Assembly: GCA_963764715.1 (NCBI GenBank)
Contig: CAVXTP010000004.1
Coordinates: 1 to 29,595 of the forward strand
DNA length: 29,595 nucleotides
Origin: an uncultured Acidobacteriota bacterium
GTDB taxonomy: Bacteria > Acidobacteriota > Thermoanaerobaculia > UBA5066 > Gp7-AA6
Direction of reading: 5' to 3'
The position numbers and the translations under genes are program-made. The notes beneath the pieces were generated by a model. That model made no database searches. It was not told the origin of the DNA and saw nothing but the letters and a program-made list of their open reading frames with translations. Of this stretch, positions 4,539-29,595 are shown in pieces. Within the stretch, counting starts at the first letter, position 1. Each line of letters begins with the position of its first letter.

Positions 4539-4540
4539 CC

Positions 4541-10135: not shown

Positions 10136-10222
10136 GACAGCTGGCCGGGAGCATAAATCAACCCGCTTCAGGGCTGGAAGAAGGAGCCAAGAAAGAGCAT
10201 AGAATTTCCCAAGAGGTTCCCA

Positions 10223-11326: not shown

Positions 11327-11396
11327 CTGGCATCCGGGATCGAGCGGCGACGGGGCGGGCCCCGATGGACTTAAGATCGCACCCCGGAGGCCCGCC

Positions 11397-12440: not shown

Positions 12441-12493
12441 CTCCTCGCCGCGCGGGCCGCTTCGCCGGGACTAGAATGTGCGGCGGAGCCGCC

Positions 12494-13552
12494 ATGCGAC
12501 GACCCGGAGCCACTTTCGCCGCCCTTCTCTTTGCCGCTTCGATTTCCGCGCAGCCCCTTCCCGAGCTGTTCCAGAAAGCCAAGGCCCAGGTCAAGGGCGA
12601 GTCCTGGACCGAGGCGCTCAAGACCCTCGACGCCCTCGAGGCGGAGGCCGCCCGGCCCGGCAACGAGGCGGCGCAGCAGCAGCTCGCGGCCCCGACCGCG
12701 TTCTACCGCGGCGTCTGCGAGGCGAACCTCGGGAACGCGGAGAAGGCGCAGGACGATTTTTCGACGTTTCTCGAGCTCCAGCCGGGCGCGTCGATGGACC
12801 CCTCGATGTACTCGAAGAAGGCGATCGCCGCCTTCCAGGCCGCGCGCAAGGGCCAGGCCGCGCCGCCCGCGGGCAACGAATCCGACGGCCGGCCCGCGAT
12901 GTTCGTGGCGTTCCAGGAATTCAAGCTGCCGCCGAACGCCGGCGAGCCGGTCAACGAGAAGTGGGGAGACGGCCCGGTGAAATGGATCATGACCGACGAG
13001 GAGAAACGAGCGTGGGCGGAGCTTTCCTCGGGAGGCGAGTGGCAGGAGTTCGTCGACAAGTTCTGGGAAGCCCGCAATCCCCGCCCGGGCAACCCGGACA
13101 ACTCCTATGAGACGACTTTCGACCGCCGGGTCGCCTTCGCGGATTCGCGCTTCGCGGAGGCCGAGGGGACCCGGGGCAGCATGACGGACCGCGGGATGGT
13201 TTTCGTTCTCCTCGGGCCGCCGACCTACGTCGGACGCAAGCCGATCCGGCCCGGCGACGACGTGTCCGATCCGGCCGGAGCCTCGCGGGGTGGCAGCTAC
13301 AACATGGGCGAACGGGGCCTCTTCGTCGTGACCGGCGTGGGCGCCCGGGCGCCGAACAGCGATGCGAGCAACTTCCGGGAGGTCTGGCACTACCGCCGCG
13401 AGCTCCTCCCGAAGGGCGTGGGTTACCAGCAGGTCGACATCGAGTTCATCACCAAGAAGGGGTTTGGCGTCAACGTCATCCAGCGCGACCCGCCCACGCT
13501 GGCGACCCTCCAGGCCGCGGCGAAGCCGAAGGCGGACCTTTCGAAACCATGA
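12494..13552 (+). CDS. Secreted GWxTD-domain protein, paralogue 3
   Basis: Start MRRPGATF after GGAG; GSMTDRGMVFVLLGPP. Confidence 0.85.
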   Translation: MRRPGATFAALLFAASISAQPLPELFQKAKAQVKGESWTEALKTLDALEAEAARPGNEAAQQQLAAPTAFYRGVCEANLGNAEKAQDDFSTFLELQPGASMDPSMYSKKAIAAFQAARKGQAAPPAGNESDGRPAMFVAFQEFKLPPNAGEPVNEKWGDGPVKWIMTDEEKRAWAELSSGGEWQEFVDKFWEARNPRPGNPDNSYETTFDRRVAFADSRFAEAEGTRGSMTDRGMVFVLLGPPTYVGRKPIRPGDDVSDPAGASRGGSYNMGERGLFVVTGVGARAPNSDASNFREVWHYRRELLPKGVGYQQVDIEFITKKGFGVNVIQRDPPTLATLQAAAKPKADLSKP

Positions 13553-13607
13553 AGACCTGAACACGGCCGTCTCGAACGGACGTAAGATTCCGACCCGGAG
13601 GCCCGCC

Positions 13608-14717
13608 ATGAAGCGTATCGGCGCCGTTTTCGCCGCGCTCCTGCTTCTTTCCGCCGCATCCACCGCCCAGACCCTCCCCGAGCTCTTCCAGAAAGCCAAA
13701 GCCCAGGTGAAGGGCGAGTCCTGGGCCGAAGCGCTCAAGACGCTGGAAAAGCTGGACGCCGAGGCTTCGCAGCCCGGCAACGAGGCCGCCCGACAGCAGC
13801 TCGCCGCGCCGACGGCGTTCTACCGGGGGGTCTGCGAGGCCAACCTCGGCCAGGCCGACAAGGCGAAGGCGGACTTCGCGACGTTTCTCGAGATCCAGCC
13901 CAACGCCTCGCTGGACCCGTCGATGTACTCGAAGAAGGCGATCGCCGCCTTCGACGCAGCGCGCGCGAGTATCGCTCCGCCGCCGGATCCGGGCGACGGC
14001 CGCCCCTCGATGTTCGCCCGCTTCCAGGAGTTCAAGCTTCCGCCGAACTCCGGCGAGCAGATCAACGACGCGTGGGCCAGCGGTCCCATCAAGTGGATCC
14101 TGACGCCCGAGGAGAAGCGGGCCTGGGCGAGCCTGACGGCCGGCGGCGAGCGGCAGGAGTTCGTCGACAAGTTCTGGGAGACGCGCAACCCGCAGCCCGG
14201 CAATCCCGACAATTCGTACCGCACGGCGTTCGAGCGTCGGGTCGCGTTCGCCGACGCGAACTTCGTGCAGGCCGAAGGGACGCGCGGCAGCATGACCGAC
14301 CGCGGCATGGTGTTCGTGCTGCTCGGCCCGCCGACCTACGTCGGGCGCAAGCCGATCCGCACGGGCGACGACTCGAGCGAGGCCGCCGGGCTATCGACGG
14401 TCGAGTCGTCCGACCAGCGCAACGCGATGACGGCCGCCGTCGCTTCGTCCCCCTCCGGGAGGATCTCGTCGGCCCAGGCCGCCGCCATCTCGGACAAGTT
14501 CTCCGGCCCGGGGACGCAGGCGATCGACTCGAACGCCAACTGGCGCGAGGTCTGGCACTACCGCCGGGAGCTGCTCCCCAGGGGCGTGGGCTACCAGCAG
14601 GTCGACGTCGACTTCATCACGAAGAAGGGTTACGGCGTGAACATCATGCAGCGCGACACGCCGACCCTGAACACGCTCGCCGCGGCGGCGAAGCCTCCGG
14701 CGAAGCCGAGCTCCTAG
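13608..14717 (+). CDS. Secreted GWxTD-domain protein, paralogue 4
   Basis: Start MKRIGAVF after GGAGG; GSMTDRGMVFVLLGPP. Confidence 0.85.
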   Translation: MKRIGAVFAALLLLSAASTAQTLPELFQKAKAQVKGESWAEALKTLEKLDAEASQPGNEAARQQLAAPTAFYRGVCEANLGQADKAKADFATFLEIQPNASLDPSMYSKKAIAAFDAARASIAPPPDPGDGRPSMFARFQEFKLPPNSGEQINDAWASGPIKWILTPEEKRAWASLTAGGERQEFVDKFWETRNPQPGNPDNSYRTAFERRVAFADANFVQAEGTRGSMTDRGMVFVLLGPPTYVGRKPIRTGDDSSEAAGLSTVESSDQRNAMTAAVASSPSGRISSAQAAAISDKFSGPGTQAIDSNANWREVWHYRRELLPRGVGYQQVDVDFITKKGYGVNIMQRDTPTLNTLAAAAKPPAKPSS

Positions 14718-14739: not shown

Positions 14740-15447
14740 TCAGTCCGGGAGAACTTCCGTCTCCCGCTCGGCGAGGGTGCGGCGCGTCAGCCGCGCCACG
14801 TACACGGTCACGATCACCGTGATCGCGACTCCCGCGCCGAACACGGCCCAGCCCCACGCGGGAGGCGGCGCGGCGCCGGCGCCGGAAGCTCCGGAAGCGC
14901 GCGCGGCCGCGCCGAGGCCGGCGTAGAGAAAGGTCAGCGGAATCATCCCCGTCGCGCTCGCGGCGACGTACGGCCCGAAGCGGATCGCCGTCAGCCCGTA
15001 GACGTAGTTGGACAGGACGAACGGAACGACCGCCGACATCCGGAGAAGGAAGACGATCCGCCATCCCTTCTCTCCGACGGCGGCGTCGAGCGCCGCGAAG
15101 CGCGGGTCCCGGGCGGCCGCGCGGGCGATGCGGTCGCGCGCGAGGTAGCGGGCGACGAGAAACGAGGCGGCGGCCCCCGAGGTCGCCCCGGCGAGCGCGA
15201 CTGCCGTTCCGGGAACGAGGCCGAAGAGAAAGCCCGCGCCGATCGTCATCAGCACCGCCGGCAGCATGAGAAGGGTCACGCCCGCGTGGGCGGCGACGTA
15301 GAGCACGACGCCGAGCGCGCCGAGCCCCGCGATCCACGCGCCGAAGCCGGCGACCCAGTCGCCGAAGGGAAGCCGCCGTCCCGCCGCGACGAGCGCGGCG
15401 GCGACGAGGATGGCGGCGAGGAGGCGGACCCATCGGCGCGGCGTCAC
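14740..15447 (-). CDS. TVP38/TMEM64 (VTT/DedA superfamily) membrane protein
   Basis: Hydrophobic 235 aa; LPAVLMTIGAGFLFG, GATSGAAASFLVARY, LLRMSAVVPFVLSNYVYGLT and YAGLG patterns. Confidence 0.88.
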   Translation of the reverse strand: MTPRRWVRLLAAILVAAALVAAGRRLPFGDWVAGFGAWIAGLGALGVVLYVAAHAGVTLLMLPAVLMTIGAGFLFGLVPGTAVALAGATSGAAASFLVARYLARDRIARAAARDPRFAALDAAVGEKGWRIVFLLRMSAVVPFVLSNYVYGLTAIRFGPYVAASATGMIPLTFLYAGLGAAARASGASGAGAAPPPAWGWAVFGAGVAITVIVTVYVARLTRRTLAERETEVLPD

Positions 15448-15615
15448 GCGGAGGATCCTCTCAGAGATTTCGGTGGAAGAGCCGGGGGATCAATTTCCCG
15501 GTTGGCGCTTCGGAAAATCGGATTCGGAAAATTCTCGGGAGCTTCCCGTCGCCGCCGGAGCGCGCCTCGTCCTCGCCGCCGTCCCGTTCGTCATCGCGCG
15601 TCGGATCCGCGCGCG

Positions 15616-15631
15616 TGGCAAGCCGGTTGCT
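15616..15631 (+). promoter_or_regulatory. Sigma54-type -24/-12 promoter
   Basis: TGGCAAGCCGGTTGCT matches TGGCAC-N5-TTGCW with exact GG-N10-GC spacing; intergenic and divergent from the TVP38 gene. Confidence 0.7.
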
Positions 15632-15682
15632 CTTCTTCGCGCGCGAAGGGCGCGCATGGGGCGCGCCCGCGGAGAGGAGAAC

Positions 15683-15775
15683 ATGGCGAGACTCGAGCGA
15701 TTCGGTTTCGGCTTGCTCCGCCTCTCGTTCCGGGCGCCCCGCGGCTGCCCATTCGGAGCCGTCGTGCGCTCGTAG
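15683..15775 (+). CDS. Putative 30-aa small protein (or part of an sRNA)
   Basis: GGAGAGGAG immediately upstream of ATG 15683; MARLERFGFGLLRLSFRAPRGCPFGAVVRS*; lies between the sigma54 motif and a strong terminator. Confidence 0.4.
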   Translation: MARLERFGFGLLRLSFRAPRGCPFGAVVRS

Positions 15776-15834
15776 CCCCGGTCCTCCACGCCCGCCCTCT
15801 CCAGTCCCCGGAGGGGGTCGGACGTCGTCCAATG

Positions 15835-15866
15835 AAAAGCCCCGCCGAGAGGCGGGGCTTATTTTT
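15835..15866 (+). terminator. Rho-independent terminator, probably bidirectional
   Basis: AAAAGCCCCGCC-GAGA-GGCGGGGCTT-ATTTTT: 10-bp stem, GNRA loop, T-tail and leading A-tract. Confidence 0.85.
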
Positions 15867-15884
15867 CGGAACAGGTCTCGAAGA

Positions 15885-16023
15885 AGGGCGCCCGCGAGGG
15901 GCGCCCCTACGACCGGGGGCGCGAAGATCGGAAAGGTCCGAAAGACGTGCTCCGGGGGTGCGAAAGACCGGAAAGGTCCGAAAGACGTGCTCCGGTCGTA
16001 GGGGCGGGGCTTGTCCCCGCCCT
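15885..16023. repeat. Inverted pair of GTAG-type REP palindromes
   Basis: Minus strand GTAGGGGCGCCCCTCGCGGGCGCCCT (15885-15910) and plus strand GTAGGGGCGGGGCTTGTCCCCGCCCT (15998-16023). A perfect 14-bp inverted repeat GCCCCTACGACCGG / CCGGTCGTAGGGGC lies at 15903-15916 and 15992-16005. Confidence 0.75.
15921..15995 (+). repeat. Two tandem copies (40-bp period) inside the REP pair
   Basis: CGGAAAGGTCCGAAAGACGTGCTCCGG is identical at 15929-15955 and 15969-15995. Confidence 0.9.
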
Positions 16024-16068
16024 CGGGGATTTCGCCGAGTGAGGCATCAAAACACGACCTGGGTTCCA

Positions 16069-16120
16069 GGTCAGTCCTGATTCGTTGATTTCGGCGGGGC
16101 GGGGAGTTTCCCCGCCCCGT
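16069..16120 (+). repeat. RAYT-associated site (variant TTCGTTG) plus GC hairpin
   Basis: GGTCAGTCCTGATTCGTTGATTTCG (16069-16093) followed by GCGGGGCGGGGA-GTT-TCCCCGCCCCGT. Confidence 0.85.
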
Positions 16121-16276
16121 GCCGCTCGAGGGAGGTTCGGGTCCGTGCCACGTCTGCCCCCCGGAGGAGTTGCGCGCGAAGCGGAACCTTCCCCTTGATA
16201 TCCTCGCCCCTCGGCCCGCGAGGGCCGGGTCCCGGTTACCATCCCCACCCGCCACGGTGAAACAAAGGAGGGACTG

Positions 16277-17029
16277 ATGCGCCTTCGCTCCTCGATCGCC
16301 GCCTTCGGGTTCCTGGCCGCGGCCGCTTCTCCGCTCCTCGCCGACGAGCTCGGCCACGCCCGGCCAAAGAGCTGGGGCACGACCTCTCAGACGGTCCTGA
16401 CGCTCGGCCCCTGCGACGCCGCGCAGCGGGACATGACGAATCCCTTCCAGGTCTTCGGTTGCGATTTCCTGACCGCGAAACAGCCCAACACGTTCAACTC
16501 GGCGGCTGCCGGGTTCCCGCTGCACCTGCCGGAAGGCGCACTGCTCGAGGAGGTCGACGTCTCCTACTACGACACCGTCAGCGGGTCCGAGCCGTTCGTC
16601 AAACTGATTCGCAAGGGCCCCGGACCGACGGACCAGATCCTTAACGATAACCTCCCGGTGTTCGAGTCGGGGGACAACCTGGCGGTCTTCGTCCTGAGTC
16701 CGCCGCGCGAAATCCACAACGACAACTTCATCTATGCCCTGAACCTGGACCTGGACACCGTCGACGCCACGCACTACGAGGGGCTCTACAACGTCTCGAT
16801 CCGCTACCGCCTCCAGGTCAGCCCGCCGCCCGAAACGGCGACGTTCGGGGACGTTCCGGCCGACCATCCGTTCTTCCAGTTCGTGGAAGCGCTGGCCGCG
16901 TCGGGGATCACCGCGGGCTGCGGGAACGGGAACTTCTGCCCCAACACACCGCTGACGCGGGGCCAGATGGCGGTGTTCCTGGCGAAGGCGCTCGGGCTGC
17001 ACTGGCCGAACTCTCAGTTGCCGAACTGA
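16277..17029 (+). CDS. Secreted protein with single C-terminal S-layer homology (SLH) domain (SLH-1)
   Basis: GGAGG RBS; signal peptide; C-terminal TFGDVPADHPFFQFVEALAASGITAGCGNGNFCPNTPLTRGQMAVFLAKALGL. Confidence 0.9.
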   Translation: MRLRSSIAAFGFLAAAASPLLADELGHARPKSWGTTSQTVLTLGPCDAAQRDMTNPFQVFGCDFLTAKQPNTFNSAAAGFPLHLPEGALLEEVDVSYYDTVSGSEPFVKLIRKGPGPTDQILNDNLPVFESGDNLAVFVLSPPREIHNDNFIYALNLDLDTVDATHYEGLYNVSIRYRLQVSPPPETATFGDVPADHPFFQFVEALAASGITAGCGNGNFCPNTPLTRGQMAVFLAKALGLHWPNSQLPN

Positions 17030-17081
17030 GGGGTCAGTCCTGATTCGTTGATTTCGCCCGCGGCGGGGAATCCCGCCCCGT
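17030..17081 (+). repeat. RAYT-associated site (variant) plus degenerate hairpin
   Basis: GGGGTCAGTCCTGATTCGTTGATTTCG (17030-17056) starts on the base after the SLH-1 stop; 25 bp identical to 16069-16093; followed by GCGGCGGGGAATCCCGCCCCGT. Confidence 0.88.
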
Positions 17082-17094
17082 TTCCTCGCCCCCC

Positions 17095-17128
17095 GAAAAC
17101 ACGAAGGGCGCCCTTTCGGGCGCCCTCG
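17095..17128 (-). terminator. Rho-independent terminator of the Fe-S carrier gene
   Basis: Minus strand AGGGCGCCC-GAAA-GGGCGCCCT then TCGTGTTTTC, about 25 bp after the stop at 17152. Confidence 0.75.
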
Positions 17129-17151
17129 ATCGATTCGACGTTGGATCGCGC

Positions 17152-17535
17152 TTACGCGCTGAAGCTCTTTCCGCAGCCGCAGCCGCCGCCGGTCGCGTTC
17201 GGGTTCGTGACCGAGAACCCCGCTCCGCGCATGTCCTCGACGAAGTCGACCGTGGCGTCCTTGAGGTACGTGGCGCTCTGCGGATCGACGACGACCTGGA
17301 TGCCGCCCGTCTCGATGAGGGCGTCGCCTTCCTTCTTGTCGTCGAAGGTGAAGCCGTACTGGAAACCGGAGCAGCCTCCGCCCTGGACGAAGATCCGGAG
17401 CGGCTTGCCCTGAGACTCGGGCATGGTGCCCGCGAAGTATTTGACCTTTTCGATCGCTTTCTCCGTCAGCGACAGGAGGGCGCCCGTGGGTCCGGTCGTG
17501 ATCGGAGTCGGAATCGAAGATTCGACAGTAGACAT
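17152..17535 (-). CDS. A-type iron-sulfur cluster carrier (HesB/IscA/ErpA family)
   Basis: [16 protein letters not shown] and NPNA...CGCGKSF motifs; GGAG RBS. Confidence 0.93.
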
Positions 17536-17589
17536 TGAGTTCTCCTCGAAGGGGATTATGGTCCGCGTTGCGGACCCAACGCAACGGTC

Positions 17590-17871
17590 TCAGGAAGCCT
17601 TGGCGAGTGAGGGAGTTGCGAGCAGCTCGTCGATCGACTTCCAGGTCGAGTCGACCTGCCGGGGCGGCGTCAGAAAGGAGACCTGCTTCGGGCTGACCTC
17701 GAAATCGACGACTTCCGGCAGCCGCGCCCGCTCCCAGGCCCGGCGCAGGGTGCGACACTCCGCGTCATCCAGGGGACGGTTGAAATGACCAATCGCGAGA
17801 CGGGCCCCGTCGACCTCGAAGACCGACCGGAACGAAACCCTTGCTGCGCGAGGCTGATTGCTCCAACCCAT
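17590..17871 (-). CDS. Hypothetical protein (~93 aa)
   Basis: Part of ORF 17590..17988 from ATG 17871 (MGWSNQPR...); G/C-rich third positions; co-oriented just upstream of the Fe-S carrier gene. Start uncertain. Confidence 0.5.
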   Translation of the reverse strand: MGWSNQPRAARVSFRSVFEVDGARLAIGHFNRPLDDAECRTLRRAWERARLPEVVDFEVSPKQVSFLTPPRQVDSTWKSIDELLATPSLAKAS

Positions 17872-17982
17872 GATGTCTGTCGGATGCTCCCGGCCATCTC
17901 TCCGTTTCATGCCCCGATCAACAGCAATGACCGTGCCACTATTCCTAACCCCCACTATTGGGAGCACAGGTTCATGTGCAGA

Positions 17983-17998
17983 CCCCAATATCTTGTGT
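17983..17998. promoter_or_regulatory. NrdR box
   Basis: CCCCAATATCTTGTGT fits acaCwAtATaTwGtgt; about 145 bp upstream of an RNR gene. Confidence 0.75.
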
Positions 17999-18005
17999 TT
18001 TCCTC

Positions 18006-18035
18006 TTGACTCGGTCTTCCAGCCGGACTTACCCT
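18006..18035 (+). promoter_or_regulatory. Candidate sigma70 promoter for nrdJ
   Basis: TTGACT-N18-TACCCT immediately downstream of the NrdR box. Confidence 0.45.
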
Positions 18036-18143
18036 CATGAGCAACGCTGGCGGTTTTTCCGCATCACTCAGAGGTGAGCCAGGGTTTTTAGAGCCGGGGC
18101 GGAGCATTCGTTTCGTGAGCATTTCGGAAGGGAGGACGGGGGG

Positions 18144-20936
<2,793 letters not shown>

Positions 20937-20969
20937 AACCAAGTTTGGGGTGGGGCCGTCTTAGGCCGA

Positions 20970-21000
20970 CTGCGGGCGCCGAAGGGCGCCCGCAGGTTTT
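20970..21000 (+). terminator. Rho-independent terminator of nrdJ
   Basis: CTGCGGGCGCC-GAAG-GGCGCCCGCAG followed by GTTTT. Confidence 0.8.
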
Positions 21001-21036
21001 ACCTTTAGATCGACAGGCCGGCGAAACTCGACACGG

Positions 21037-21269
21037 CTCGCGGATCAGCGCTTCGTCGGACGCGACGCGGGCTTCCAGGCGAGGTGGAAGTGGTTCGTCA
21101 TCAGGCAGTAGGCGAGCAGGCGGACCCCGAACCGGTCGCGGCAACCGGCCAGCCGCTTCAGGAAGTCCTCGCGGTCCCGATCGCCGCTGAAGATGTCGCG
21201 ACGCTCGTTTCCGCGTGCGGTCACGTGGTAGACGGCCCCGGGGAACTCCAGTCGCGGCGGTCGCGGCAT
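21037..21269 (-). pseudogene. Internally deleted RAYT transposase
   Basis: First ~64 codons near-identical to 28583..29557 (through NHFHLA), joined out of frame to the C-terminal RLEARVASDEALIR. The deletion is 664 bp relative to the intact copy, at a GGCG microhomology (21078-21081; 28702 and 29366 in the intact gene). Confidence 0.9.
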
Positions 21270-21319
21270 ATCAAGGCGGCTCTCTCCTTGAATTGTCGCG
21301 AGCCGGTTGCTCGCACCTC

Positions 21320-21346
21320 CGAAATCAGCAAATCAAGACTGACCCC
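21320..21346 (-). repeat. RAYT-associated site, upstream end of the deleted RAYT
   Basis: CGAAATCAGCAAATCAAGACTGACCCC is the reverse complement of the consensus, 50 bp upstream of the ATG. Confidence 0.92.
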
Positions 21347-21372
21347 TCGTTGCCAGACCCCTCGCTGCACTT

Positions 21373-22191
21373 CTATTGGACCCAGTTCAAACCGAGGGCC
21401 TTGGCCAAGAAAACTGCCATCTGCCGGCGCGTCACCGGAGTGTCCGGACAGTAATTCCCGCCGCCGCATCCGGCCGTGATGCCCGAGTCGACCAGCGCCT
21501 CGATGTACTGAAAAGCCGGGTCCGACGTCGGAACGTCGTTGAACGTCGGCAACATCGGCGCCGGAGACACCTGGAGCGTGTAGCCGAATGAGACGCCGGC
21601 GAGCTGGAGCGTGTCGTCGCTGACGCCCCACCCAACCTCGACGAGGATCTTGAAGTTGAAGTTGTCCACCGTATATGGCGGAGGCACGAAACTCTTCGAC
21701 ATGCAGCCGCTGCCGGCCTCGGACGTGTACGTGTGATACGGGATGGGATCGCACTGGCCCAGGTAGTCGCAGATATAGACGTTGAAGAAGAGTCGGCCGC
21801 TACCATTGTTGTCGCAATAGTCGTACTCGATGATGGTCAAACGAGCGCCACCGGGCAGACGAGGGCTTCCGAAGAGGCGGGGTTGCCCACCGGTGACGTA
21901 ACGCCGATAGTCGTAGACCCCGAGCGCCGGGTTCCAGGTACTGGTGTAGTCGGTGCAGCCGGAGGCGCATGCGGTGTCGGGATCGAAATCCGAGGCCGGT
22001 ATGGTCTGCCAGACAGTCGTCGTCGTGCCGAAATTCGGTGCGGTATGGGCAGGGACACGCTTCGGCGCCCGAGACGGGCCGACGGCGACCGGGCCCGCCT
22101 TCGCGTCGCCAGGCGGTGCCTGGGCTCGACCGATCGCGAGGGCCGTTACCATGAAGACCGCGCAAAGAATCCCGACTCTCTGCCACTTCAT
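21373..22191 (-). CDS. Secreted single-SLH-domain protein (SLH-2)
   Basis: AAGGAGGT RBS; signal peptide; LPGGARLTIIEYDYCDNN; C-terminal TFNDVPTSDPAFQYIEALVDSGITAGC...TRRQMAVFLAKALGL. Confidence 0.9.
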   Translation of the reverse strand: MKWQRVGILCAVFMVTALAIGRAQAPPGDAKAGPVAVGPSRAPKRVPAHTAPNFGTTTTVWQTIPASDFDPDTACASGCTDYTSTWNPALGVYDYRRYVTGGQPRLFGSPRLPGGARLTIIEYDYCDNNGSGRLFFNVYICDYLGQCDPIPYHTYTSEAGSGCMSKSFVPPPYTVDNFNFKILVEVGWGVSDDTLQLAGVSFGYTLQVSPAPMLPTFNDVPTSDPAFQYIEALVDSGITAGCGGGNYCPDTPVTRRQMAVFLAKALGLNWVQ

Positions 22192-22292
22192 TGCGACCTC
22201 CTTCTCGGACCCGCTTTTGGCGGAGCGGAGGGTTTCCGACGCTATTGGCTCCAGTCTAATGCTGCGGAGGAGGATGCGACGCAGGAGAGGAT

Positions 22293-22430
22293 GGGGTCAG
22301 TCCTGATTTGCTAAGGGAATGGGGTCAGTCTTGATTTGCAGCAGAGGGCGGGGTGGGTCAGTCTTGAAATGCTGATTTCGGAGGGGCTGGTGCCCCTTGG
22401 GCGGGAAATCAGCAAATCAAGACTGACCCC
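22293..22430. repeat. Stack of four RAYT-associated sites
   Basis: Plus-strand copies at 22293-22312 and 22321-22339 (both truncated) and 22355-22380; minus-strand copy at 22405-22430; small hairpin AGGGGC-TGGT-GCCCCT between the last two. Confidence 0.92.
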
Positions 22431-22580
22431 AGGAGACTGGAAGCGCTCGCGATGGTGCGCGACCCGCTCGAGCTAGGCCTCGCGGTCCCGATCGTCCCGA
22501 AAGATCGCGCGGCGCTCGTTGCCGCGGGCGGTAACGTGGTACAGGGCCCCCGGGAACTCGAGTCGCGGTGGTCGTGGCAT
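22431..22580 (-). pseudogene. 5' fragment of a more diverged RAYT
   Basis: MPRPPRLEFPGALYHVTARGNERRAIFRDDRDREA*LERVAHHRERF; in-frame TAG at 22473-22475; ends at the site at 22430. Confidence 0.88.
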
Positions 22581-22662
22581 CTCCGCTCCGAACGACCGCG
22601 AACGATGCGGGACCTCCACTCAGAGATTGTCGCGAGACGGCTGGAAGCGGAGAGCGCGCCGG

Positions 22663-22689
22663 CGAAGTCAGGAAATCAAGACTGACCCC
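22663..22689 (-). repeat. RAYT-associated site upstream of the RAYT fragment
   Basis: Reverse complement reads GGGGTCAGTCTTGATTTCCTGACTTCG. Confidence 0.9.
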
Positions 22690-22702
22690 TCAGCACCCTC
22701 CG

Positions 22703-23320
22703 TTACCACTGTAGGCCCAGCGCCTTGGAGAGGAAGACGGCCATCTGGCCGCGTGTGACGGGGCTGTTGGGACAGAAGAGGCCGGAGCCGCACCCGCCAG
22801 TGATCCCCGCCGCCACGAGCGCCTCGATGTACTGGAAGAACGGATTGCTCGTGGGTACGTCGCCGAACGTCGGGGTTTCCGGAGCCGGAGACACCTGAAG
22901 CTTGTAACCGAGAGAGACGCCACCGAGCTGGAGGGTGTCGTCGCTGACGCCCCACCCGGCCTCGATGAGAATGCTCGAGCTGAGGTTGTCCACCGTATAC
23001 GGCGGAAGATCGAATAAGACAGCGGCACACCCTTGGCCGGCGATGGACGTGTAAGTGTGATACGGGTTCGAATCGCACTCCGAAAAGTGGTTGCAGATGT
23101 AGACGTTGAAGGTGAGCCGACCGCTTCCGCTTCCATTGAAGTCGCAATAGCGGTACTGGATAGCCGACACGAGAGCGCCCGCGGGCAGACGGGGGCTCGC
23201 GAAAAGGCGGGGTTGGCCACCAGTGACGTAACGGCGGTAGGCGTAGTTGTTTAGCGCAGGGTTCCAGGTACTCGTATAGTCCGTGCAGCCCGAGGCGCAT
23301 GCGGTGTCCGGATCGAAGTC
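22703..23320 (-). pseudogene. 5'-truncated SLH protein (SLH-3), close paralogue of SLH-2
   Basis: Aligns with SLH-2 from DFDPDTACASGCTDYTSTWNPAL onward; no signal peptide. The upstream part of ORF 22703..23461 is read-through of the site and the RAYT remnant. Confidence 0.85.
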
Positions 23321-23338
23321 GAGCCTGGGCAAGGGAAT

Positions 23339-23450
23339 GGGGTCAGTCTTGATTTGCTGAGTTGGCGGAGGAGGCGGTGGCTCGGGTTGGATTTGAGGCG
23401 GCGGCCGAGGCGGTCGAACTGCCGGATGAACGCGTCGTCGGACGTGAGGC
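23339..23450 (-). pseudogene. RAYT 3'-end remnant including its terminal site (site on + strand, 23339-23365)
   Basis: GGGGTCAGTCTTGATTTGCTGAGTTGG is the same variant as at 28581. 23400-23450 aligns with ~28640-28692 (LTSDDAFIRQFDRL versus LASDEALIRQLDRL). Confidence 0.85.
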
Positions 23451-23672
23451 ATCAGTGTCATCGCCAGACAGCTTTGGGGCCAATCTGGATTCCTGTATTG
23501 CTCGCGGACCGGCCTCGGTACGCAGTTCTCCGGCAGAACCGCAAACGCGGTTCGCCTCTAGCTGGTGAAGACAGGAGCACGCGGTCAAGCCTGGCATCCT
23601 GACCGCATTCTTCACAAGAACTGATCCAGTTGAATCAGGCCAGCCCAGCGGGGAGGCGCAACACTCACGCAG

Positions 23673-24032
23673 ATGAAGCTGAAGATGAATCCGTCTCGAT
23701 GGCCGCTTCTCTCGTCGTTGCTGGCGCTGAGTTGCAGTTCTCATGTCCTGACTGCCCCTACCGGCCCGCTCTGTGGAACCTGCGACCTTGGCTCGCCAGC
23801 TGCCCGGAAGGCTGGCAAGATCGTAATCACCGAGGACATGGCGGCGGTGTCGGGCTGCACGCTAATGGGAACGGTCGGCGGTTGGGAAGACTTAGACAAA
23901 AAGAATGGTGCCTACGCCCTCGCGGTTAAGAACCACGCTTACGACCACGGTGCCGACCCCATGATTCGGGTTCTCTTTGTCAACGGTGGAGATGACGAGG
24001 CTTACCTCTGCCCATCCGCCCCTACGAATTGA
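23673..24032 (+). CDS. Hypothetical exported protein, possible lipoprotein
   Basis: 119-aa ORF with a hydrophobic N-terminus ending LLALSC; visibly more A/T-rich than the core genes; stop 31 bp before a site. Confidence 0.55.
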   Translation: MKLKMNPSRWPLLSSLLALSCSSHVLTAPTGPLCGTCDLGSPAARKAGKIVITEDMAAVSGCTLMGTVGGWEDLDKKNGAYALAVKNHAYDHGADPMIRVLFVNGGDDEAYLCPSAPTN

Positions 24033-24063
24033 CTCCAGGGCTTAGCCGGACCTCCTCCGGGAC

Positions 24064-24199
24064 GGGGTCAGTCTTGATTTGCTGCTTCGGGTTGTTTAGC
24101 TCGCGGCTTAGACTCGGCGAATCCCTGAGTCCAGAAGAATGGGAGGTTCAGGGAATGGGGTCGAGGGGAAATGGGGTCAGTCCTGATTTGCTGATTTCG
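24064..24199 (+). repeat. RAYT-associated sites
   Basis: Copies at 24064-24090 and 24173-24199; head-only remnant AGGGAATGGGGTC at 24150-24162. Confidence 0.9.
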
Positions 24200-24827
24200 G
24201 GTTGAGCCGGGGTGCCCCTGTCAGTAATCGCTCCACTGAAGTCCCAGGGCCTTCGCGAGAAACACCGCCATCTGCCGCCGCGTCAACGGAGCATCGGGAC
24301 AATAGTTGCCGCCAGCGCACCCGGCGGTGATGCCCGACGAATAGAGCGCCTCGATGAACTGGAAGGCGGGATCCGACGTCGGCACGTCGCCGAAGGTTGG
24401 CGTGGCCGGAGCCGGCGAGACGTCGAGCTGATAGCTGACGATGGCGCCGCCCAGAACGACAGACCCGTCTCCGGCGCCAAAGGCCAGCGAGAGCCCGTAG
24501 ATTTTGTGGTAGTTGTCGATCCGCAAGCTCAGCGTGTTGTCTGCCACGAAGCTACAGCCGTTGTTCGTTGAATCGACCTCGACGACATCCGTGCAGTTCA
24601 GCGCCTGGTTGTCGCACTCCCGAAGAGTCAGATACAGGTGACTCGCGGGATTGTTGTCGCAATAGTCGAGCTCGACGCGCCGAACGACGGATCCTCCTGG
24701 CAGATGAAGCGCCGCCGCCCAGAGGGACCCGTTCACCGACGGATAGCGTGTGAGCCCGCCCGCGGACTTCCAGTCTCCGGCGAGACCCGACTGGAGAGGG
24801 ACGAACTCCATCGCCGCGACGCGCACG
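24172..24827 (+). repeat. 656-bp direct duplication of 27743-28398
   Basis: Constant offset of 3571 bp; I find one mismatch (24494 C versus 28065 T, synonymous Gly). Confidence 0.92.
24221..24827 (-). pseudogene. 5'-truncated copy of SLH-5 (SLH-4)
   Basis: Protein identical to SLH-5 from RVAAMEF onward; lacks the first 43 codons, including the signal peptide. Confidence 0.88.
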
Positions 24828-24844
24828 GCGGTTAGCAGAGGAAT

Positions 24845-25017
24845 GGGGTCAGTCTTGATTTGCTGATTTCAGGGAGTTGCGGAGGCGGGCGATCTGCGAA
24901 TACGAAATGCGGCCGAAAGGCGGCTGCTCCGCCGGGCCATGTATGGCCGCCAGGGGATGCGCGTGACGGTTTTGGGGTCAGTCCTGATTGGCCGATTTGG
25001 AATGGGTAGGGTCAGTC
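24845..25017 (+). repeat. RAYT-associated sites
   Basis: Copies at 24845-24870 and 24974-24998; partial GGAATGGGTAGGGTCAGTC at 24999-25017. Confidence 0.88.
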
Positions 25018-25262
25018 GAGAAATGTCAGGTTCGAGATTCCCGCTGGGAGCGTCGTGAATCAGGTCACGGTGGGGGATCCAGGGGCCGCCAGGCAAGACG
25101 GGAGGGTCCTAAATCTGAGAGGCCCAGTGCCGATCTGAAATGCTCGACGGCGGAGGGAAGGTGTGACAGATCGAGCGGCGCACGTCCCCTGTCATCGCCT
25201 GAGCCCCGGGGCACCCAGTCAAGCTCCAATTGCCCCATTCGGTTCGTCCAGGCTCCCGGAAC

Positions 25263-25288
25263 GGGGTCAATCTCGATTTGCTGATTCG
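25263..25288 (+). repeat. RAYT-associated site (degenerate)
   Basis: GGGGTCAATCTCGATTTGCTGATTCG preceded by GGAAC. Confidence 0.8.
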
Positions 25289-25398
25289 CCCGCTCGGATC
25301 GGCGAGTTCTCGGATGGCGCTTTCGATCTGGCTGCGCAGAGCCGGGTCGGTGTCGAGCGGATGTTCGAGGAGTCTGACCGGTCCGACGAAGGAACCCT

Positions 25399-27459
25399 TC
25401 AGATCGAAAGGCCCGGATCGCCCTCAACGACCTTCTGCCGCAGCACCGGCCGTTCGCCCGCCTTCCAGAGCGACGCCGTGTGGACGACGCGGTAGCGAAG
25501 AGGACCGCCGTCGGGACGATCGCTTCGCGTGATCGGGCGGGGGATACAGACGAACTCGGTCCGCATTTCATCGCCGGTGAGCCGCACCGTCGCATAGCCG
25601 TGACCGCCCAGGTCCACGAATTCGAGGTGGGGGGCGAGACTCGGATTGGAAAGGGCGTGAGCGCTCTTCAGGTCGAAGGTCTTCGCGTATTCGAGGCACG
25701 AGCGGACGCCGTGCTTCAAGAGCATGTTGTGGGTCCATTCGGGCTGACCCGCGGGCCCCTCGACCAGGAACAGCGCACGGAGGGGATCGTCCTTGGGATG
25801 GCGGTGCTCGAGGGCCTCCATCGTCCCGTGGCTGATCAGCGAGGCGCCGACGAAACTGAGCCCGACCGGCTCGTACTTGGCGGGTGGCAAGAGAGGGGCG
25901 GCATAGCCGGCCCAGAAGCTGTGACGGTCGCCCGACACGATCGCGAATCCGGTGATCTTCGAATCACGGACGAGGTCATAGATTTCGCCACGCTCGTGGT
26001 AGGCGCTGCCAAAATCCCAGCTGCCGATCTGCGCGAAGGTGTCGGCCGGCCACTTCTGCTTGGTCAGCCCATCCGGAAGGTTCTGGGGGTCGGCCCGCAT
26101 GTCGAGGGCACCCAACGAATTGCCCCAGATCTTCCAGGTTGCCCCGGACCGACGGAGCTGGTCCATGAACCACTTCTTCTGCACGGCCCCGAGGATCGTG
26201 CGCGGCGGTGAATCCTTTCGCGGATTCGGGATGGTGACCTCGCCGAAACTGAGCTCGGCGGGCGGTTTGCCGCCGTTGGAGGTGCGGCCGGCGTCGAGCG
26301 CGATCATCGCCGGCTCCGAGAACATCCCGTTGAAAGCCGGATCGTAAATCTTCTCCACGCCCTCCACATCGGTCGCGTCGGGGCCGGAGAAGGTGCGTTG
26401 GTCGGTGAGAATGAGATCGAGGTTTCGGCCGTATCGCAAAGACCGATACACGATCAGGCTGTTGATGGCCTTCAGATTGTTGGGCTCGATCCCGAGGCCA
26501 CTGTCGTCCCACTTTTCGATCGGCACATTTTTCACCGCCACCGTGCCGAACGTGTCGAACGATCCGCTCGGCGCCTTCACGCGCGCGGGGATGTACTCGA
26601 ACCATGCCTGGTTGGCGGCGACCTTGATCGTCTGGCCCGGCCGCGGCTCGCCCCCTGCCTGCTGGATGCTCTGCCGGCCCTGCCAGGAGAACTCGTGGTT
26701 GTCCCAGATGGCGACGAACGGCCAACGCGCCCGCGCGTCCTGCAGGTCGGGATCGGCCAGGTAGCCCTTGTAGACGACGCGATAGCCCTCGAGCGTCAGC
26801 GGGTAGTGGAATTTGCCGGTTTGACCGCCATCGGGAATCCGGCCGACGTCGTAGATCGTGCGGTCGTACACCGTCGCCAGCTCGTCCGGATATTGGACGA
26901 CCTCGTAGATGAAATCGCCGAGGTGGAGAACGAAACCGAGTTGATCGGCGGGCGCCGCACGCTCATCCTCGAAGATCATCCGGCGATAGCCGTTGAGCTT
27001 GCCTTCATTGAGGCTCTGGCAGCTCACGAAGGCGAAACTGACCGGCCGCGGATCGTTCGAGAGCGGCGCGGTGATCGTCCGGCCGACCCGGCTGCCGTTT
27101 CCCTCTCCATCGGTGAAGCGGTACCAGTAGACGCGCGCTGGCTTGAGATGACCGACCAGCACGCGCGTCGTCCAATCCGATTCCGGGCAGACCGGCGCGG
27201 ACGCTTTCGCGACCACCCGCCGGAACGCTTGATCCTCAGCGACCTCGACCGTGAGCACACGCCGCCCGCCCGACTCGAACGGCCGCCGAGTCCAGAGGAT
27301 GACGCTCTCCGGATCGGGATCGCCGGACGCGACGCCGTGGGGATAGAGGTCGCGACGCTCATGCCACGGGGTGGTGGAAGCTCGAGCCGGCCCGCCCCAC
27401 GCCAGCGAGGCGCCCATGGCTGCGGCCGTTTTCAGAAAGGATCGGCGGCTAATCGTCAT
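25399..27459 (-). CDS. phoD: Tat-exported alkaline phosphatase D family protein
   Basis: SRRSFLK Tat signal; GVASGDP, LWTR, FVSCQ, HLGDFIYE, WDNHE, SGDRH motifs. ATG 27459 fits the GGAG at 27467-27470 better than GTG 27465. Confidence 0.93.
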   Translation of the reverse strand: MTISRRSFLKTAAAMGASLAWGGPARASTTPWHERRDLYPHGVASGDPDPESVILWTRRPFESGGRRVLTVEVAEDQAFRRVVAKASAPVCPESDWTTRVLVGHLKPARVYWYRFTDGEGNGSRVGRTITAPLSNDPRPVSFAFVSCQSLNEGKLNGYRRMIFEDERAAPADQLGFVLHLGDFIYEVVQYPDELATVYDRTIYDVGRIPDGGQTGKFHYPLTLEGYRVVYKGYLADPDLQDARARWPFVAIWDNHEFSWQGRQSIQQAGGEPRPGQTIKVAANQAWFEYIPARVKAPSGSFDTFGTVAVKNVPIEKWDDSGLGIEPNNLKAINSLIVYRSLRYGRNLDLILTDQRTFSGPDATDVEGVEKIYDPAFNGMFSEPAMIALDAGRTSNGGKPPAELSFGEVTIPNPRKDSPPRTILGAVQKKWFMDQLRRSGATWKIWGNSLGALDMRADPQNLPDGLTKQKWPADTFAQIGSWDFGSAYHERGEIYDLVRDSKITGFAIVSGDRHSFWAGYAAPLLPPAKYEPVGLSFVGASLISHGTMEALEHRHPKDDPLRALFLVEGPAGQPEWTHNMLLKHGVRSCLEYAKTFDLKSAHALSNPSLAPHLEFVDLGGHGYATVRLTGDEMRTEFVCIPRPITRSDRPDGGPLRYRVVHTASLWKAGERPVLRQKVVEGDPGLSI

Positions 27460-27562
27460 CGTCACACTCCATCATCAGGGCTGTCGTTGGCGTCGCTCGA
27501 GGGCGCGGGCGCGAACGCCTGCTGAGACAAGTACGATCCCCGCTCGGAGGGGTTTTGGTAAG

Positions 27563-27770
27563 GGGGTCAGTACTGATTTTGCTGACTTCGGGGCCGCGAC
27601 CGGGCAGCCAAGAAGTTCCCGATGACCGCCGCCGGCGGCGTGCCGCGACGTCTTCCCGATCAGCTTCTCGAACCGCGTGAAGGAACGGGGTCAGTCTCGA
27701 TTTGCTGGTTCAGGGAATGGGTAGGGTCAGTCTAACGGGGGCTGGGGTCAGTCCTGATTTGCTGATTTCG
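27563..27770 (+). repeat. Cluster of RAYT-associated sites
   Basis: Copies at 27563-27590, 27687-27707 and 27744-27770; partial AGGGAATGGGTAGGGTCAGTCT at 27712-27733. Confidence 0.9.
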
Positions 27771-27791
27771 GGTTGAGCCGGGGTGCCCCTG

Positions 27792-28526
27792 TCAGTAATC
27801 GCTCCACTGAAGTCCCAGGGCCTTCGCGAGAAACACCGCCATCTGCCGCCGCGTCAACGGAGCATCGGGACAATAGTTGCCGCCAGCGCACCCGGCGGTG
27901 ATGCCCGACGAATAGAGCGCCTCGATGAACTGGAAGGCGGGATCCGACGTCGGCACGTCGCCGAAGGTTGGCGTGGCCGGAGCCGGCGAGACGTCGAGCT
28001 GATAGCTGACGATGGCGCCGCCCAGAACGACAGACCCGTCTCCGGCGCCAAAGGCCAGCGAGAGTCCGTAGATTTTGTGGTAGTTGTCGATCCGCAAGCT
28101 CAGCGTGTTGTCTGCCACGAAGCTACAGCCGTTGTTCGTTGAATCGACCTCGACGACATCCGTGCAGTTCAGCGCCTGGTTGTCGCACTCCCGAAGAGTC
28201 AGATACAGGTGACTCGCGGGATTGTTGTCGCAATAGTCGAGCTCGACGCGCCGAACGACGGATCCTCCTGGCAGATGAAGCGCCGCCGCCCAGAGGGACC
28301 CGTTCACCGACGGATAGCGTGTGAGCCCGCCCGCGGACTTCCAGTCTCCGGCGAGACCCGACTGGAGAGGGACGAACTCCATCGCCGCGACGCGCACGTG
28401 CGTGAGATTGGAAGTGCCGAAGTCCGCGGCCTTTGGATCCTGCACGACCCCGGATGGCTGCGCCGACATCTTGACGGCAAGACAACACAGCATTGCAAAA
28501 AGCGATCCGAGGCGCATGGTTCGCAT
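27792..28526 (-). CDS. Secreted single-SLH-domain protein (SLH-5)
   Basis: AGGAG RBS; signal peptide; LPGGSVVRRVELDYCDNN; C-terminal TFGDVPTSDPAFQFIEAL...TRRQMAVFLAKALGL. Confidence 0.9.
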   Translation of the reverse strand: MRTMRLGSLFAMLCCLAVKMSAQPSGVVQDPKAADFGTSNLTHVRVAAMEFVPLQSGLAGDWKSAGGLTRYPSVNGSLWAAALHLPGGSVVRRVELDYCDNNPASHLYLTLRECDNQALNCTDVVEVDSTNNGCSFVADNTLSLRIDNYHKIYGLSLAFGAGDGSVVLGGAIVSYQLDVSPAPATPTFGDVPTSDPAFQFIEALYSSGITAGCAGGNYCPDAPLTRRQMAVFLAKALGLQWSDY

Positions 28527-28580
28527 TGCATCTCCTCAGCGTGGAATTGGAATCCGTCATTCTATGAAAAACGGCCGACC

Positions 28581-28605
28581 GGTCAGTCTTGATTTGCTGA
28601 GTTGG
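28581..28605 (+). repeat. RAYT-associated site overlapping the RAYT stop codon
   Basis: GGTCAGTCTTGATTTGCTGAGTTGG; its reverse complement encodes NSANQD-TGA. Confidence 0.92.
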
Positions 28606-29557
28606 CCGGGAGGGCGTCAGCCGGGTGCGCGGACCTTAGGTGGCGGACGAGGCGGTCGAGCTGGCGGATCAATGCTTCGTCGGACGCGAGGCGGGCTTCC
28701 AGGCGCGCGAGAGGGCGGGTGAAGCTCGAGTCGTCGCGATGGAGCCGGCGGGCCATCCGGCGCACCGAGATGCGCCCGAAGCGGCGGCCGACGTAAGCGG
28801 CGAGGCACCGCGCGAACGCGACCTCGCCTCCTCGACCGGGTCCGGCGAGAGCGGCAGCGCTGATCCCGGTCTCGTGCGCGACGGCCTCCAGGACGCGGTC
28901 CTCGGTCAGGCCGAGGATCGGTGGATCGAGCTCCCCGGCGGCGGCGAATCGCTCGACTGCGAACGCCTCGTCGCCCACGACGGCCTGGGCGATGGCGGGC
29001 AGCTCGTCGGTGGCCGCCAGGCCGTCGACCAGCTCCACGTATCGCGCGACGGCGGCGCGGCGATTCGCGCCGAGCGCGGCCAGGGTCTCGTCGACATCGA
29101 GCCATCTCGGGCCGCGCGCGCGGCGCAGGTGACGGTCGCTCGACCAGGGATAGTCGCAGGCGCGGCGGGTGATCCCGGCACGCACGGGGTTCTGATGGAC
29201 GTAGCGGATGAGAGCCTGAAGGTACCGGTCCTCCTGGACGAGGCGGGACTTGTATCGACCCTGGAACAGATGGCCCACCCGGGCGTACCGGCGGTTGAAG
29301 AGCTGAGCATACGAGGACTGGAGGCAGGCCATGATCCTCGACAGCGGCGTCGCCGCGGTGCGAAGGGCGAGGTGGAAGTGGTTCGTCATCAGGCAGTAGG
29401 CGAGCAGGCGGAACCCGAACCGGTCGCGGCAACCAGCCAGCCGCTTCAGGAAGTCCTCGCGATCCCGATCGCTGCGAAAGATGTCGCGGCGCTCGTTTCC
29501 GCGAGCGGTCACGTGGTAGACGGCCCCGGGGAACTGCAGACGCGGCGGTCGCGGCAT
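28583..29557 (-). CDS. Y1 HUH transposase of the RAYT/TnpA-REP type with DnaA-domain-IV-like C-terminal HTH
   Basis: MPRPPR...YHVTARGN, AYCLMTNHFHL (HUH), GHLFQGRY, RYVHQNP (catalytic Tyr helix), YPWSS; C-terminal VLEAVAHETGIS...ARCLAAYVGRR...ISVRRMARRLHRDDSSF resembles Bac_DnaA_C. Confidence 0.92.
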   Translation of the reverse strand: MPRPPRLQFPGAVYHVTARGNERRDIFRSDRDREDFLKRLAGCRDRFGFRLLAYCLMTNHFHLALRTAATPLSRIMACLQSSYAQLFNRRYARVGHLFQGRYKSRLVQEDRYLQALIRYVHQNPVRAGITRRACDYPWSSDRHLRRARGPRWLDVDETLAALGANRRAAVARYVELVDGLAATDELPAIAQAVVGDEAFAVERFAAAGELDPPILGLTEDRVLEAVAHETGISAAALAGPGRGGEVAFARCLAAYVGRRFGRISVRRMARRLHRDDSSFTRPLARLEARLASDEALIRQLDRLVRHLRSAHPADALPANSANQD

Positions 29558-29595
29558 ATCAAGGCGCCTCTCTCCTTGAATTGTCGCGAGCCGGT

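Follow-up and report, generated by a model that had tools for sequence, protein, structure and literature searches.

What is the short, asymmetric site that recurs between the genes of an acidobacterial contig, and what put it there? The contig (CAVXTP010000004.1, here C4) is 29,595 nucleotides (29.6 kb) long and was analyzed whole; we call it the window. It belongs to G000, a 4.36-Mb draft genome of an uncultured soil acidobacterium in 26 contigs with ~70% G+C. A first-pass annotation of its right end had proposed a new system, in which an HUH (RAYT-like) transposase assembles an integron-like cassette array at a 27-bp site. We consider it probable that the site is instead the terminal inverted repeat (TIR) of a TIRtron, and that the array represents a mobile repeat family of known kind that has multiplied locally and decayed in a plastic region.

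The names TIRYT and TIRtron were given to RAYT-like genes that have terminal inverted repeats, not repetitive extragenic palindromic (REP) sequences, at their flanks (Di Nocera et al., 2013, PMC3733652). According to that paper, many TIRYT repeats share the motif GGGGWSAS, some families are moderately abundant, occurring as singles, dimers or clusters, and the acidobacterial TIRYT group is "sharply defined". TIRYTs correspond to TnpAY1 subclass 2.1 and to RAYT group 1 of Bertels, and carry a DnaA_C-like C-terminus, according to Quentin et al. (2018, PMC6006769). For group 1 RAYTs, the flanking 16-mer frequency is ~12 in Bertels et al. (2017, PMC5581495). The window system is of the TIRtron type; its repeat head, GGGGTCAG, fits GGGGWSAS, and its 21 genome-wide copies lie within the range given in these papers. 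The first-pass annotation had allowed that such ends near RAYT-like genes might have been noticed before, and GGGGTCAG-type ends are indeed in print. A literature search on the bare octamer returned unrelated primer matches only.

The transposase gene and its repeats

The gene to which the site belongs lies at the very end of the contig:

28583-29557, minus strand: full-length TIRYT (group 1 RAYT) gene, 324 aa, with a Y1 HUH core and a probable C-terminal DnaA_C-like helix-turn-helix
28581-28611, plus strand: 3' TIR of this gene, overlapping its last codons (..NQD) and stop

The product matches Pfam Y1_Tnp (53.6 bits, cut-off 23) and the NCBIfam model REP_Tyr_transpos, "REP-associated tyrosine transposase" (85.9 bits, cut-off 80). 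Its C-terminus gives a weak Bac_DnaA_C match of 28 bits, under the 31.5 cut-off, which is exceeded by the orthologs of two related genomes, G007 (41.7) and G017 (34.3). The histidines of NHFHL (H60, H62) and Y119 in RYVHQNP, a Y-x-x-x-NP motif, are kept in 8/8 aligned homologs. A PDB sequence search with the transposase gave no match at E up to 0.01. We infer that the conserved head of the repeat is the place at which the enzyme nicks single-stranded DNA and joins it again.

In one orientation the site lies ~50 nt ahead of the start codon; in the opposite orientation it spans the stop codon. The upstream arrangement is seen at both 5' fragments of the gene in the window, and both arrangements at 5/5 full orthologs (loci L003, L004, L007, L012 and L015 of related genomes). 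At the full window gene, C4 ends 38 nt upstream of the ATG, just before the expected 5' repeat. The C-terminal NQD/SQD encoded by the repeat is retained in 6/6 orthologs of this type. Because inverted copies occupy the 5' flank of the gene and its stop codon, the 27-nt site is, by position in the sequence, the gene's own TIR. The assignment of the site to the HUH gene in the first-pass annotation is supported.

Two further TIRYT paralogs are encoded in the genome, at C6:495252-496278 and C7:33418-34449 (46% and 45% identical to the window transposase). Each has a set of inverted repeats of its own at its two ends, and these carry the GGGGTCAG head but a different tail. Head positions are kept in 67 to 75 of 75 aligned copies. 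The tail consists of two tandem 8-9-nt direct repeats in all three paralog families: TGATTTGC/TGATTTCG in the window (21320-21346), CTGAACTT/CTGAAGTT and ATTTTTCGG/ATTTTCCGG in the C6 and C7 repeats. In all three families, too, the stretch that separates the upstream repeat from the start codon contains a conserved TCGCGACAAT. Since the head is constant and the tandem-repeat tails differ by paralog, we infer a common catalytic head and a family-specific address in the tail, possibly read by the C-terminal helix-turn-helix. The tandem tail may thus be the address for the DnaA_C-like domain, and TCGCGACAAT may be a promoter element.

A single repeat unit has no significant fold (z +0.1 to -0.9 versus shuffles) and the motif lacks a GTAG foot, which agrees with the earlier statement that the site is not a GTAG-footed REP hairpin. 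For the inverted pair 22355/22403, the DNA fold of 22345-22440 reaches -30.7 kcal/mol (z = -8.7, with 0/200 shuffles as stable). REPIN-like dimers are present (22355/22403; C6:480265/480295), and most copies of the window family are solo or tandem, and local. No Rfam family reached its gathering score in 15000-29595. A dif/Xer-type site was considered and rejected, as TCAG and CTGA arms stand 10 nt apart in a site that is otherwise not symmetric.

The C6- and C7-type families comprise 42 and 82 dispersed copies; rescanning the genome with different patterns counted 56 and 81, on 11 and 18 contigs, many of them in inverted pairs, with 0 matches in reversed controls. With siblings that disperse like REPINs and a site that is the TIR of a known transposase type, the description as a new system is not supported. 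C7-type repeats also punctuate genes over 17 kb of contig C17, where intervals hold 1-4 genes and the nearest transposase-like gene is short, 27% identical and ~5 kb off. Because this family behaves likewise on C17, a gene-punctuating look appears to be a general outcome for these repeats. Mobility of dimers is visible at C6:480265-480321, where a dimer of 58 nt has no counterpart in the orthologous spacer of G013, giving a filled-versus-empty site; G023 has a 16-nt GGGTC..GACC stub in this spacer and G017 a dimer of a different family. Given these differences, it is reasonable to think that dimers are gained and lost as discrete units at preferred positions between genes.

Two other observations concern repeats of this genome. 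A GTAG-footed, GC-rich hairpin repeat, GTAGGGGCGGGGC, has 162 matches on 25 contigs, including 15880-16030 of the window, and occurs at many places in G013 and G023; the short RAYT-like gene at C17 16494-16937 (27% identical) may be its partner. Lagging-strand targeting was also tested, comparing copies without an inverted partner with local GC skew: the head lay on the G-rich strand in 11/15 copies of the window family and in 18/31 and 12/23 of the siblings, none significant, and the copies are not independent.

Probable amplification and decay in the window

A profile built from repeat copies located 18 sites in the window: the 16 of the first-pass annotation (21037-29595), all recovered, including an indel-bearing copy at 27558, plus copies at 16069 and 17028. 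The former is the first profile copy in the window, so the earlier remark that the first 16 kb hold none stands. With up to three mismatches the 27-mer matched 11 times in the window and 0 times in each of 100 shuffles; with up to five it has 21 copies genome-wide, 15 of them on C4, and a reversed-pattern control gave 0 matches. Given these copy counts against shuffles, the repeat observation is real and far from chance. At the end of contig C26, two more sites lie with an AraC gene and a gene for a TIR-domain protein; these genes share 95.4% identity with the far side of the corresponding region of G023. This resemblance suggests that the C26 end and the window are probably one region, which would place 17/21 copies together.

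Repeat-rich DNA begins at ~15.4 kb. The features from 16 kb to the full transposase gene are as follows, with genes called by a codon-usage caller seeded on Pfam-confirmed genes (SLH, S-layer homology):

16069-16098, plus: solo repeat, then a GC-rich hairpin (profile; outside the range annotated earlier)
16277-17029, plus: SLH-1 paralog (Pfam SLH)
17028-17060, plus: solo repeat abutting the SLH-1 stop codon (27-mer scan, profile)
21036-21307, minus: internally deleted transposase copy without ~660 nt of the middle and the 3' end; ORF 21045-21269 (74 aa)
21316-21351, minus: 5' TIR of the deleted copy, ~50 nt upstream of its ATG, then TCGCGACAAT
21373-22191, minus: SLH-2, small secreted protein with one C-terminal S-layer homology domain (Pfam SLH; large paralog family)
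22287-22431, both strands: three tandem repeats (22287+, 22313+, 22355+) and one inverted (22403-), the last two forming the REPIN-like hairpin dimer
22452-22583, minus: transposase 5' fragment (tblastn match; 22464-22583 = 29441-29560 at 81%)
22658-22693, minus: 5' TIR of that fragment (flank score 23 versus 5' reference; TCGCGACAAT present)
22703-23332, minus: SLH-3, 5'-truncated SLH-2 paralog (72% identity over residues 64-270; no signal peptide)
23331-23450, minus: transposase 3' fragment with TIR (23331-23368, plus); 23341-23450 = 28581-28692 at 80%, flank score 42 versus 3' reference
23673-24032, plus: hypothetical 119-aa ORF, weak coding signal
24058-24202, plus: two solo repeats (24058-24090, 24166-24202; profile)
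24221-24826, minus: SLH-4, 5'-truncated recent SLH-5 duplicate; homology stops 11 nt from the repeat at 24838
24838-25002, plus: two solo repeats (24838-24874, 24969-25002; profile)
25257-25393, minus: transposase 3' fragment of G007 type with TIR (25257-25292, plus), just downstream of PhoD
25399-27465, minus: PhoD-like phosphatase with Tat signal (Pfam PhoD, PhoD_N, TAT_signal)
27558-27773, plus: three repeats (27558-27595 with one indel, 27681-27712, 27736-27773; profile)
27792-28526, minus: SLH-5, full-length paralog (Pfam SLH)

By these gene calls every window copy is intergenic or at the end of a transposase copy or fragment, as had been noted before. Ends of whole or decayed transposase copies account for 5/18 sites: those of the full gene, the deleted copy at 21036-21307, the 5' fragment at 22452-22583 and the 3' fragments at 23341-23450 and 25263-25393. 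Four transposase copies or fragments lie within 8.5 kb. The deleted copy still matches Pfam Y1_Tnp, and self-BLAST aligns its parts with the full gene (21078-21307 = 29366-29595 at 95%; 21036-21081 = 28660-28705 at 91%); the fragment at 25263-25393 corresponds to the 3' end of the G007 transposase gene (L004 9044-8909) at 78%. The common orientation claimed for copies from 23339 onward is correct in the profile scan (10/10). Of these ten, three mark the 3' ends of transposase copies that share one orientation, and two come from a recent duplication of a repeat with SLH-5, in which 24145-24827 equals 27707-28398 at 97.8%.

Parts of the cargo of the presumed cassettes are duplicated and truncated. 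In a tandem duplication, 21153-21990 equals 22464-23320 at 72%, covering the transposase 5' part, the repeat and most of an SLH gene. SLH-3 and SLH-4 lack their 5' parts, and the homology of both stops at a repeat. The SLH "cargo" genes are thus paralogs of a hugely expanded family, two of them fragments. The claim that no interval holds more than one cargo gene is correct for 21.3-29.6 kb, with the qualification that SLH-3 and SLH-4 are 5'-truncated copies and that two intervals also hold transposase 3' fragments (23341-23450, 25263-25393); it fails for 17060-21316, which contains an IscA-like gene and the class II ribonucleotide reductase gene. The 119-aa ORF, a "lipoprotein" in the first-pass annotation, has no Pfam or NCBIfam match and no similarity over 80 nt or more to any of the 12 relatives' loci it was compared with, and the gene caller accepts only its part 23838-24032 (score 10).

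S-layer homology domains are massively expanded genome-wide, with hundreds of tblastn matches and long tandem arrays on C21. The small SLH proteins of the window (16277-17029, 21373-22191, 27792-28526) each have one SLH domain and an N-terminal part without a Pfam match. In the left 15 kb of the window, genes of core respiration (alternative complex III, cytochrome oxidase) are accompanied by four tandem paralogs encoding a protein with TPR and GWxTD domains (10223-14717, ~72% DNA identity).

The reductase hotspot and the competing readings

Relatives were sampled as 24 other genomes of the genus and 16 from two other families of the order. A 22-mer with up to two mismatches was found in 15/24 of the former and 0/16 of the latter. 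Exact site matches in public genomes fell on 47 stretches, 46 of them labelled Thermoanaerobaculia or Acidobacteriota and the other a 2.7-kb contig of a Thermomicrobiales bin. The copies are clustered in G000 (15/21 on C4) and again in relatives, for example G001 and G023 (12/13 copies in each). In the window the cluster begins downstream of the class II ribonucleotide reductase gene, and it does so, at distances of 0.07 to 2.4 kb, in seven relatives (G001, G023, G006, G017, G021, G013 and, with a variant 2 nt shorter, G024). This reductase gene is split over at least two frames in tblastn at L001, L007, L010 and L011, most likely by assembly frameshift errors.

The genes between sites vary among relatives, as the first-pass annotation expected. 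They include short-chain dehydrogenases, SnoaL, HxlR, RibD_C, NIPSNAP, DoxX, DinB, glyoxalases, PhnB-like proteins, kinases, PhoD and a Schlafen-type helicase, among others. Between neighbouring sites lie 0-5 genes, facing either way; the sites themselves face both ways and form tandem runs of as many as six, with 13/16 co-oriented in the G001 array. In G001, G021 and G006 arrays are present without a close ortholog of the transposase. G019 (97% complete) has no site and no transposase match at E up to 1e-20, and most of its genes in the 20 kb next to the reductase gene are different. G024 (L015 10790-19769) has a co-evolved repeat variant two bases shorter (..CCTGATTTCTGATTT). The profile finds 11 copies there, next to PhoD, the reductase gene and a transposase of 59% identity, whereas a mismatch-only scan (up to two) found none.

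Some genes of these hotspots appear defence-like. The G023 hotspot has a stretch of lower G+C, judged by eye, beside a DUF4145 gene (L003 15300-18100); a CAP12/Pycsar-type TIR-domain protein is encoded next to an AraC regulator in G023 (L003 1637-2578) and G000 (C26:85419-86345). The Schlafen-type helicase is carried by the G013 hotspot (L011).

The transposase unit itself may have moved here. PhoD adjoins the transposase in G007 and G024, and one SLH gene separates them in G023 and the window. The transposase has PhoD downstream in G024 and upstream in G007, and in the window PhoD lies between a full copy and a 3' stub. The simplest explanation of these arrangements would be that the unit moved or was duplicated locally around PhoD. 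Moreover, 25258-29595 (4.35 kb; PhoD, SLH-5 and transposase) is collinear with G023 (L003 14681-10335) at 97.4%; as core genes reach 92-93%, this suggests that the block was recently exchanged between species. On C12, a 110-aa gene at position 60576 is moved and 3'-truncated relative to G023.

How might such a region arise? The repeat copies would be TIRtron derivatives (solo ends, tandem ends and REPIN-like inverted dimers) accumulated beside their gene, in a gene-flux hotspot downstream of the reductase gene. Repeated local insertion of the unit and of miniature dimers into intergenic DNA and tandem duplication of a segment with an SLH gene, TIR and transposase 5' part would have built it up, and later deletions would have left stubs and truncated genes. 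The gene-by-gene punctuation would then reflect survival of insertions only between genes, not cassette capture.

Several facts sit uneasily with local amplification and decay of a TIRtron. The window family is far more clustered than its siblings, which plain REPIN-like dispersal does not predict, and throughout the genus it keeps its place next to the reductase gene, a locality for which the preferred reading does not fully account. Modules with Ser/Thr kinase, glyoxalase-like, PhnB-like and RibD_C genes are differently ordered among genomes, and a site often lies within 12 nt of the end of homology of such reordered modules, which is the strongest point for the cassette idea. Two site-bounded segments are unusually similar to G023: 25258-29595 at 97.4%, compared with 92-93% for window 1-11316 and the reductase gene, and the C12 segment at 94%, compared with 78-83% for its flanking core. 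In a test of adjacent gene pairs in the hotspots of nine genomes, in which inclusion of the flanking core genes inflates the contrast, adjacency was ever conserved for 5/49 gaps with a site and 18/75 without (Fisher p = 0.06); per comparison the figures were 5/126 and 18/150 (p = 0.017, with comparisons not independent). Finally, a binding or cleavage assay of any TIRYT is not reported in the accessible text of PMC3733652 and PMC6006769.

A rival reading is an HUH "integron", in which the transposase cuts and rejoins single-stranded DNA at any two repeats, excising and re-inserting gene-sized modules, so that the array is a cassette store. A site-punctuated region with different accessory genes beside the same reductase gene in seven relatives, the reordered modules whose homology often ends at a site (in G006 and G021, RibD_C has a site on each side), the co-oriented runs (10/10 in the window, 13/16 in G001), the site-bounded blocks closer between species than core, and the weak depletion of conserved adjacency across site-bearing gaps all fit it. 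We nevertheless find it unlikely. No site is present in 57/101 never-conserved gaps, and intervals range from 0 to 5 genes, with genes and sites in both orientations. Junctions cut into SLH-3, SLH-4 and the 110-aa C12 gene rather than framing them, and many sites are ends of decayed transposase copies. Gene content differs in G019 even though sites and transposase are missing. Arrays persist without a close enzyme ortholog in G021, G006 and G001 (the last 66% complete), and the sibling family punctuates C17 equally, with only the short, distant gene as its nearest transposase-like neighbour. None of 27 window proteins and none of 86 proteins from the relatives' arrays gave a Phage_integrase-type match, and the earlier statement that IntI is missing is correct for the window (0/27). 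The term "integron-like cassette array" is therefore not retained, given the decayed stubs, the tandem SLH paralogs, the variable intervals and the synteny breaks, most of which have no site. A literature search for integron-like cassette arrays with HUH transposases gave none describing such arrays among the matches listed. It is similarly improbable that the TIRYT and its repeats form a single-stranded-DNA HUH recombination system moving modules within and between species at the reductase hotspot of this Thermoanaerobaculia genus. Were it true, such exchange would be a functional analogue of the integron built on a different enzyme, with the GGGGTCAG head as cut site and the tail as address, and thus a second, mechanistically distinct route to integron-like gene stores; the evidence does not favour enzyme-driven shuffling of modules.

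The sites might also be elements selected by the host at gene ends (terminators, mRNA stabilisers or helix-turn-helix sites), with a domesticated transposase-like gene and the clustering as regional regulation. Sites at or over gene 3' ends, stop codons in several of their frames, GC-rich hairpins after some sites and a tail of two tandem direct repeats, as expected for a double-stranded-DNA-binding protein, would suit this, and PMC5581495 treats RAYTs as domesticated. However, a single unit neither folds significantly nor matches an Rfam family, and sites face either way with respect to the adjacent gene and form tandem runs of as many as six. The filled-versus-empty polymorphism and the genes cut short at sites indicate insertion and rearrangement instead of a maintained regulatory arrangement; we give this explanation little credence. 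Least credible is a mis-join of repeat-rich reads in a metagenome-assembled genome. The draft state of the assembly (26 contigs) and the end of C4 just 38 nt upstream of the transposase start codon could raise this suspicion, yet the 4.35-kb stretch is collinear at 97.4% with the independent genome G023, similar arrays lie on 0.9 to 4.1 Mb contigs in G023, G006, G017 and G021, and many parts of the stretch have matches of at least 99% identity in short public contigs from soil. A search of these soil (Logan) contigs, of depth 2-5, for circles or alternative junctions gave two variants, each in a single contig and too slight to weigh for or against: one skips 91 nt (27646 to 27738) and with them a repeat copy, and the other duplicates 8 nt, GAGGAATG, where the head of the 24838 repeat lies (position 24837).

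Local amplification and decay of a TIRtron remains our preferred reading. It adds a well-resolved acidobacterial example to the widespread TIRYT/TIRtron (RAYT group 1) family. One genome with three paralogs and three cognate repeat families, together with a filled-versus-empty site and several decayed gene copies, offers a natural system for questions of TIRYT recognition and repeat mobility.

Relation to known systems

Among HUH elements, IS91 and ISCR are rolling-circle Y2 elements with two tyrosines and distinct ori and ter ends. They resemble the window system in having an HUH enzyme able to move or delete adjacent DNA and so change the neighbouring genes, and differ from it in belonging to another HUH subfamily, with two tyrosines and with ori and ter ends instead of inverted repeats. 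The TnpA of IS200/IS605 is a Y1 HUH enzyme that works by single-strand "peel and paste"; the ends of these elements are different subterminal hairpins, and whole units multiply. The catalytic core, HUH plus one tyrosine, is the same, and the window enzyme probably also acts on single-stranded DNA. The window gene, in contrast, has inverted-repeat ends, and IS200/IS605 lack the DnaA_C-like domain.

Integrons, and the attC clusters without integrase known as CALINs, share the appearance of the array: short repeats punctuate small accessory genes at a fixed chromosomal place, sites form co-oriented runs, and content varies among relatives. Unlike integrons, the window has no tyrosine recombinase, its site is not a folded imperfect palindrome of the attC type, and orientations are mixed. 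Its intervals of 0-5 genes, the junctions that truncate genes and the synteny breaks, mostly without a site, also set it apart.

REPIN-RAYT systems, reportedly described by Bertels and Rainey in 2011, are closer. Both have a Y1 gene of single-copy type with cognate repeats, hairpin-forming inverted dimers, and presence or absence of dimers in intergenic spacers. The window unit differs in being non-palindromic and without a GTAG foot, and in having 21 local copies rather than hundreds of dispersed ones.

The TIRtron/TIRYT type (TnpAY1 subclass 2.1, subgroup 2.1.2) is the closest match. Two features distinguish the window family, namely its confinement, almost wholly and genus-wide, to one plastic region beside the reductase gene and the several decayed gene copies in that region; neither locality nor decay is reported in the accessible text of the TIRYT papers. 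Shared features are the Y1 HUH class and size (~320 aa) of the protein, with a C-terminus that in the window gene is weakly DnaA_C-like, inverted repeats headed by a GGGGWSAS motif, of which the 3' one overlaps the gene end, a moderately abundant repeat family of singles, dimers and clusters, several paralogs and repeats per genome, and hosts among the Acidobacteria.

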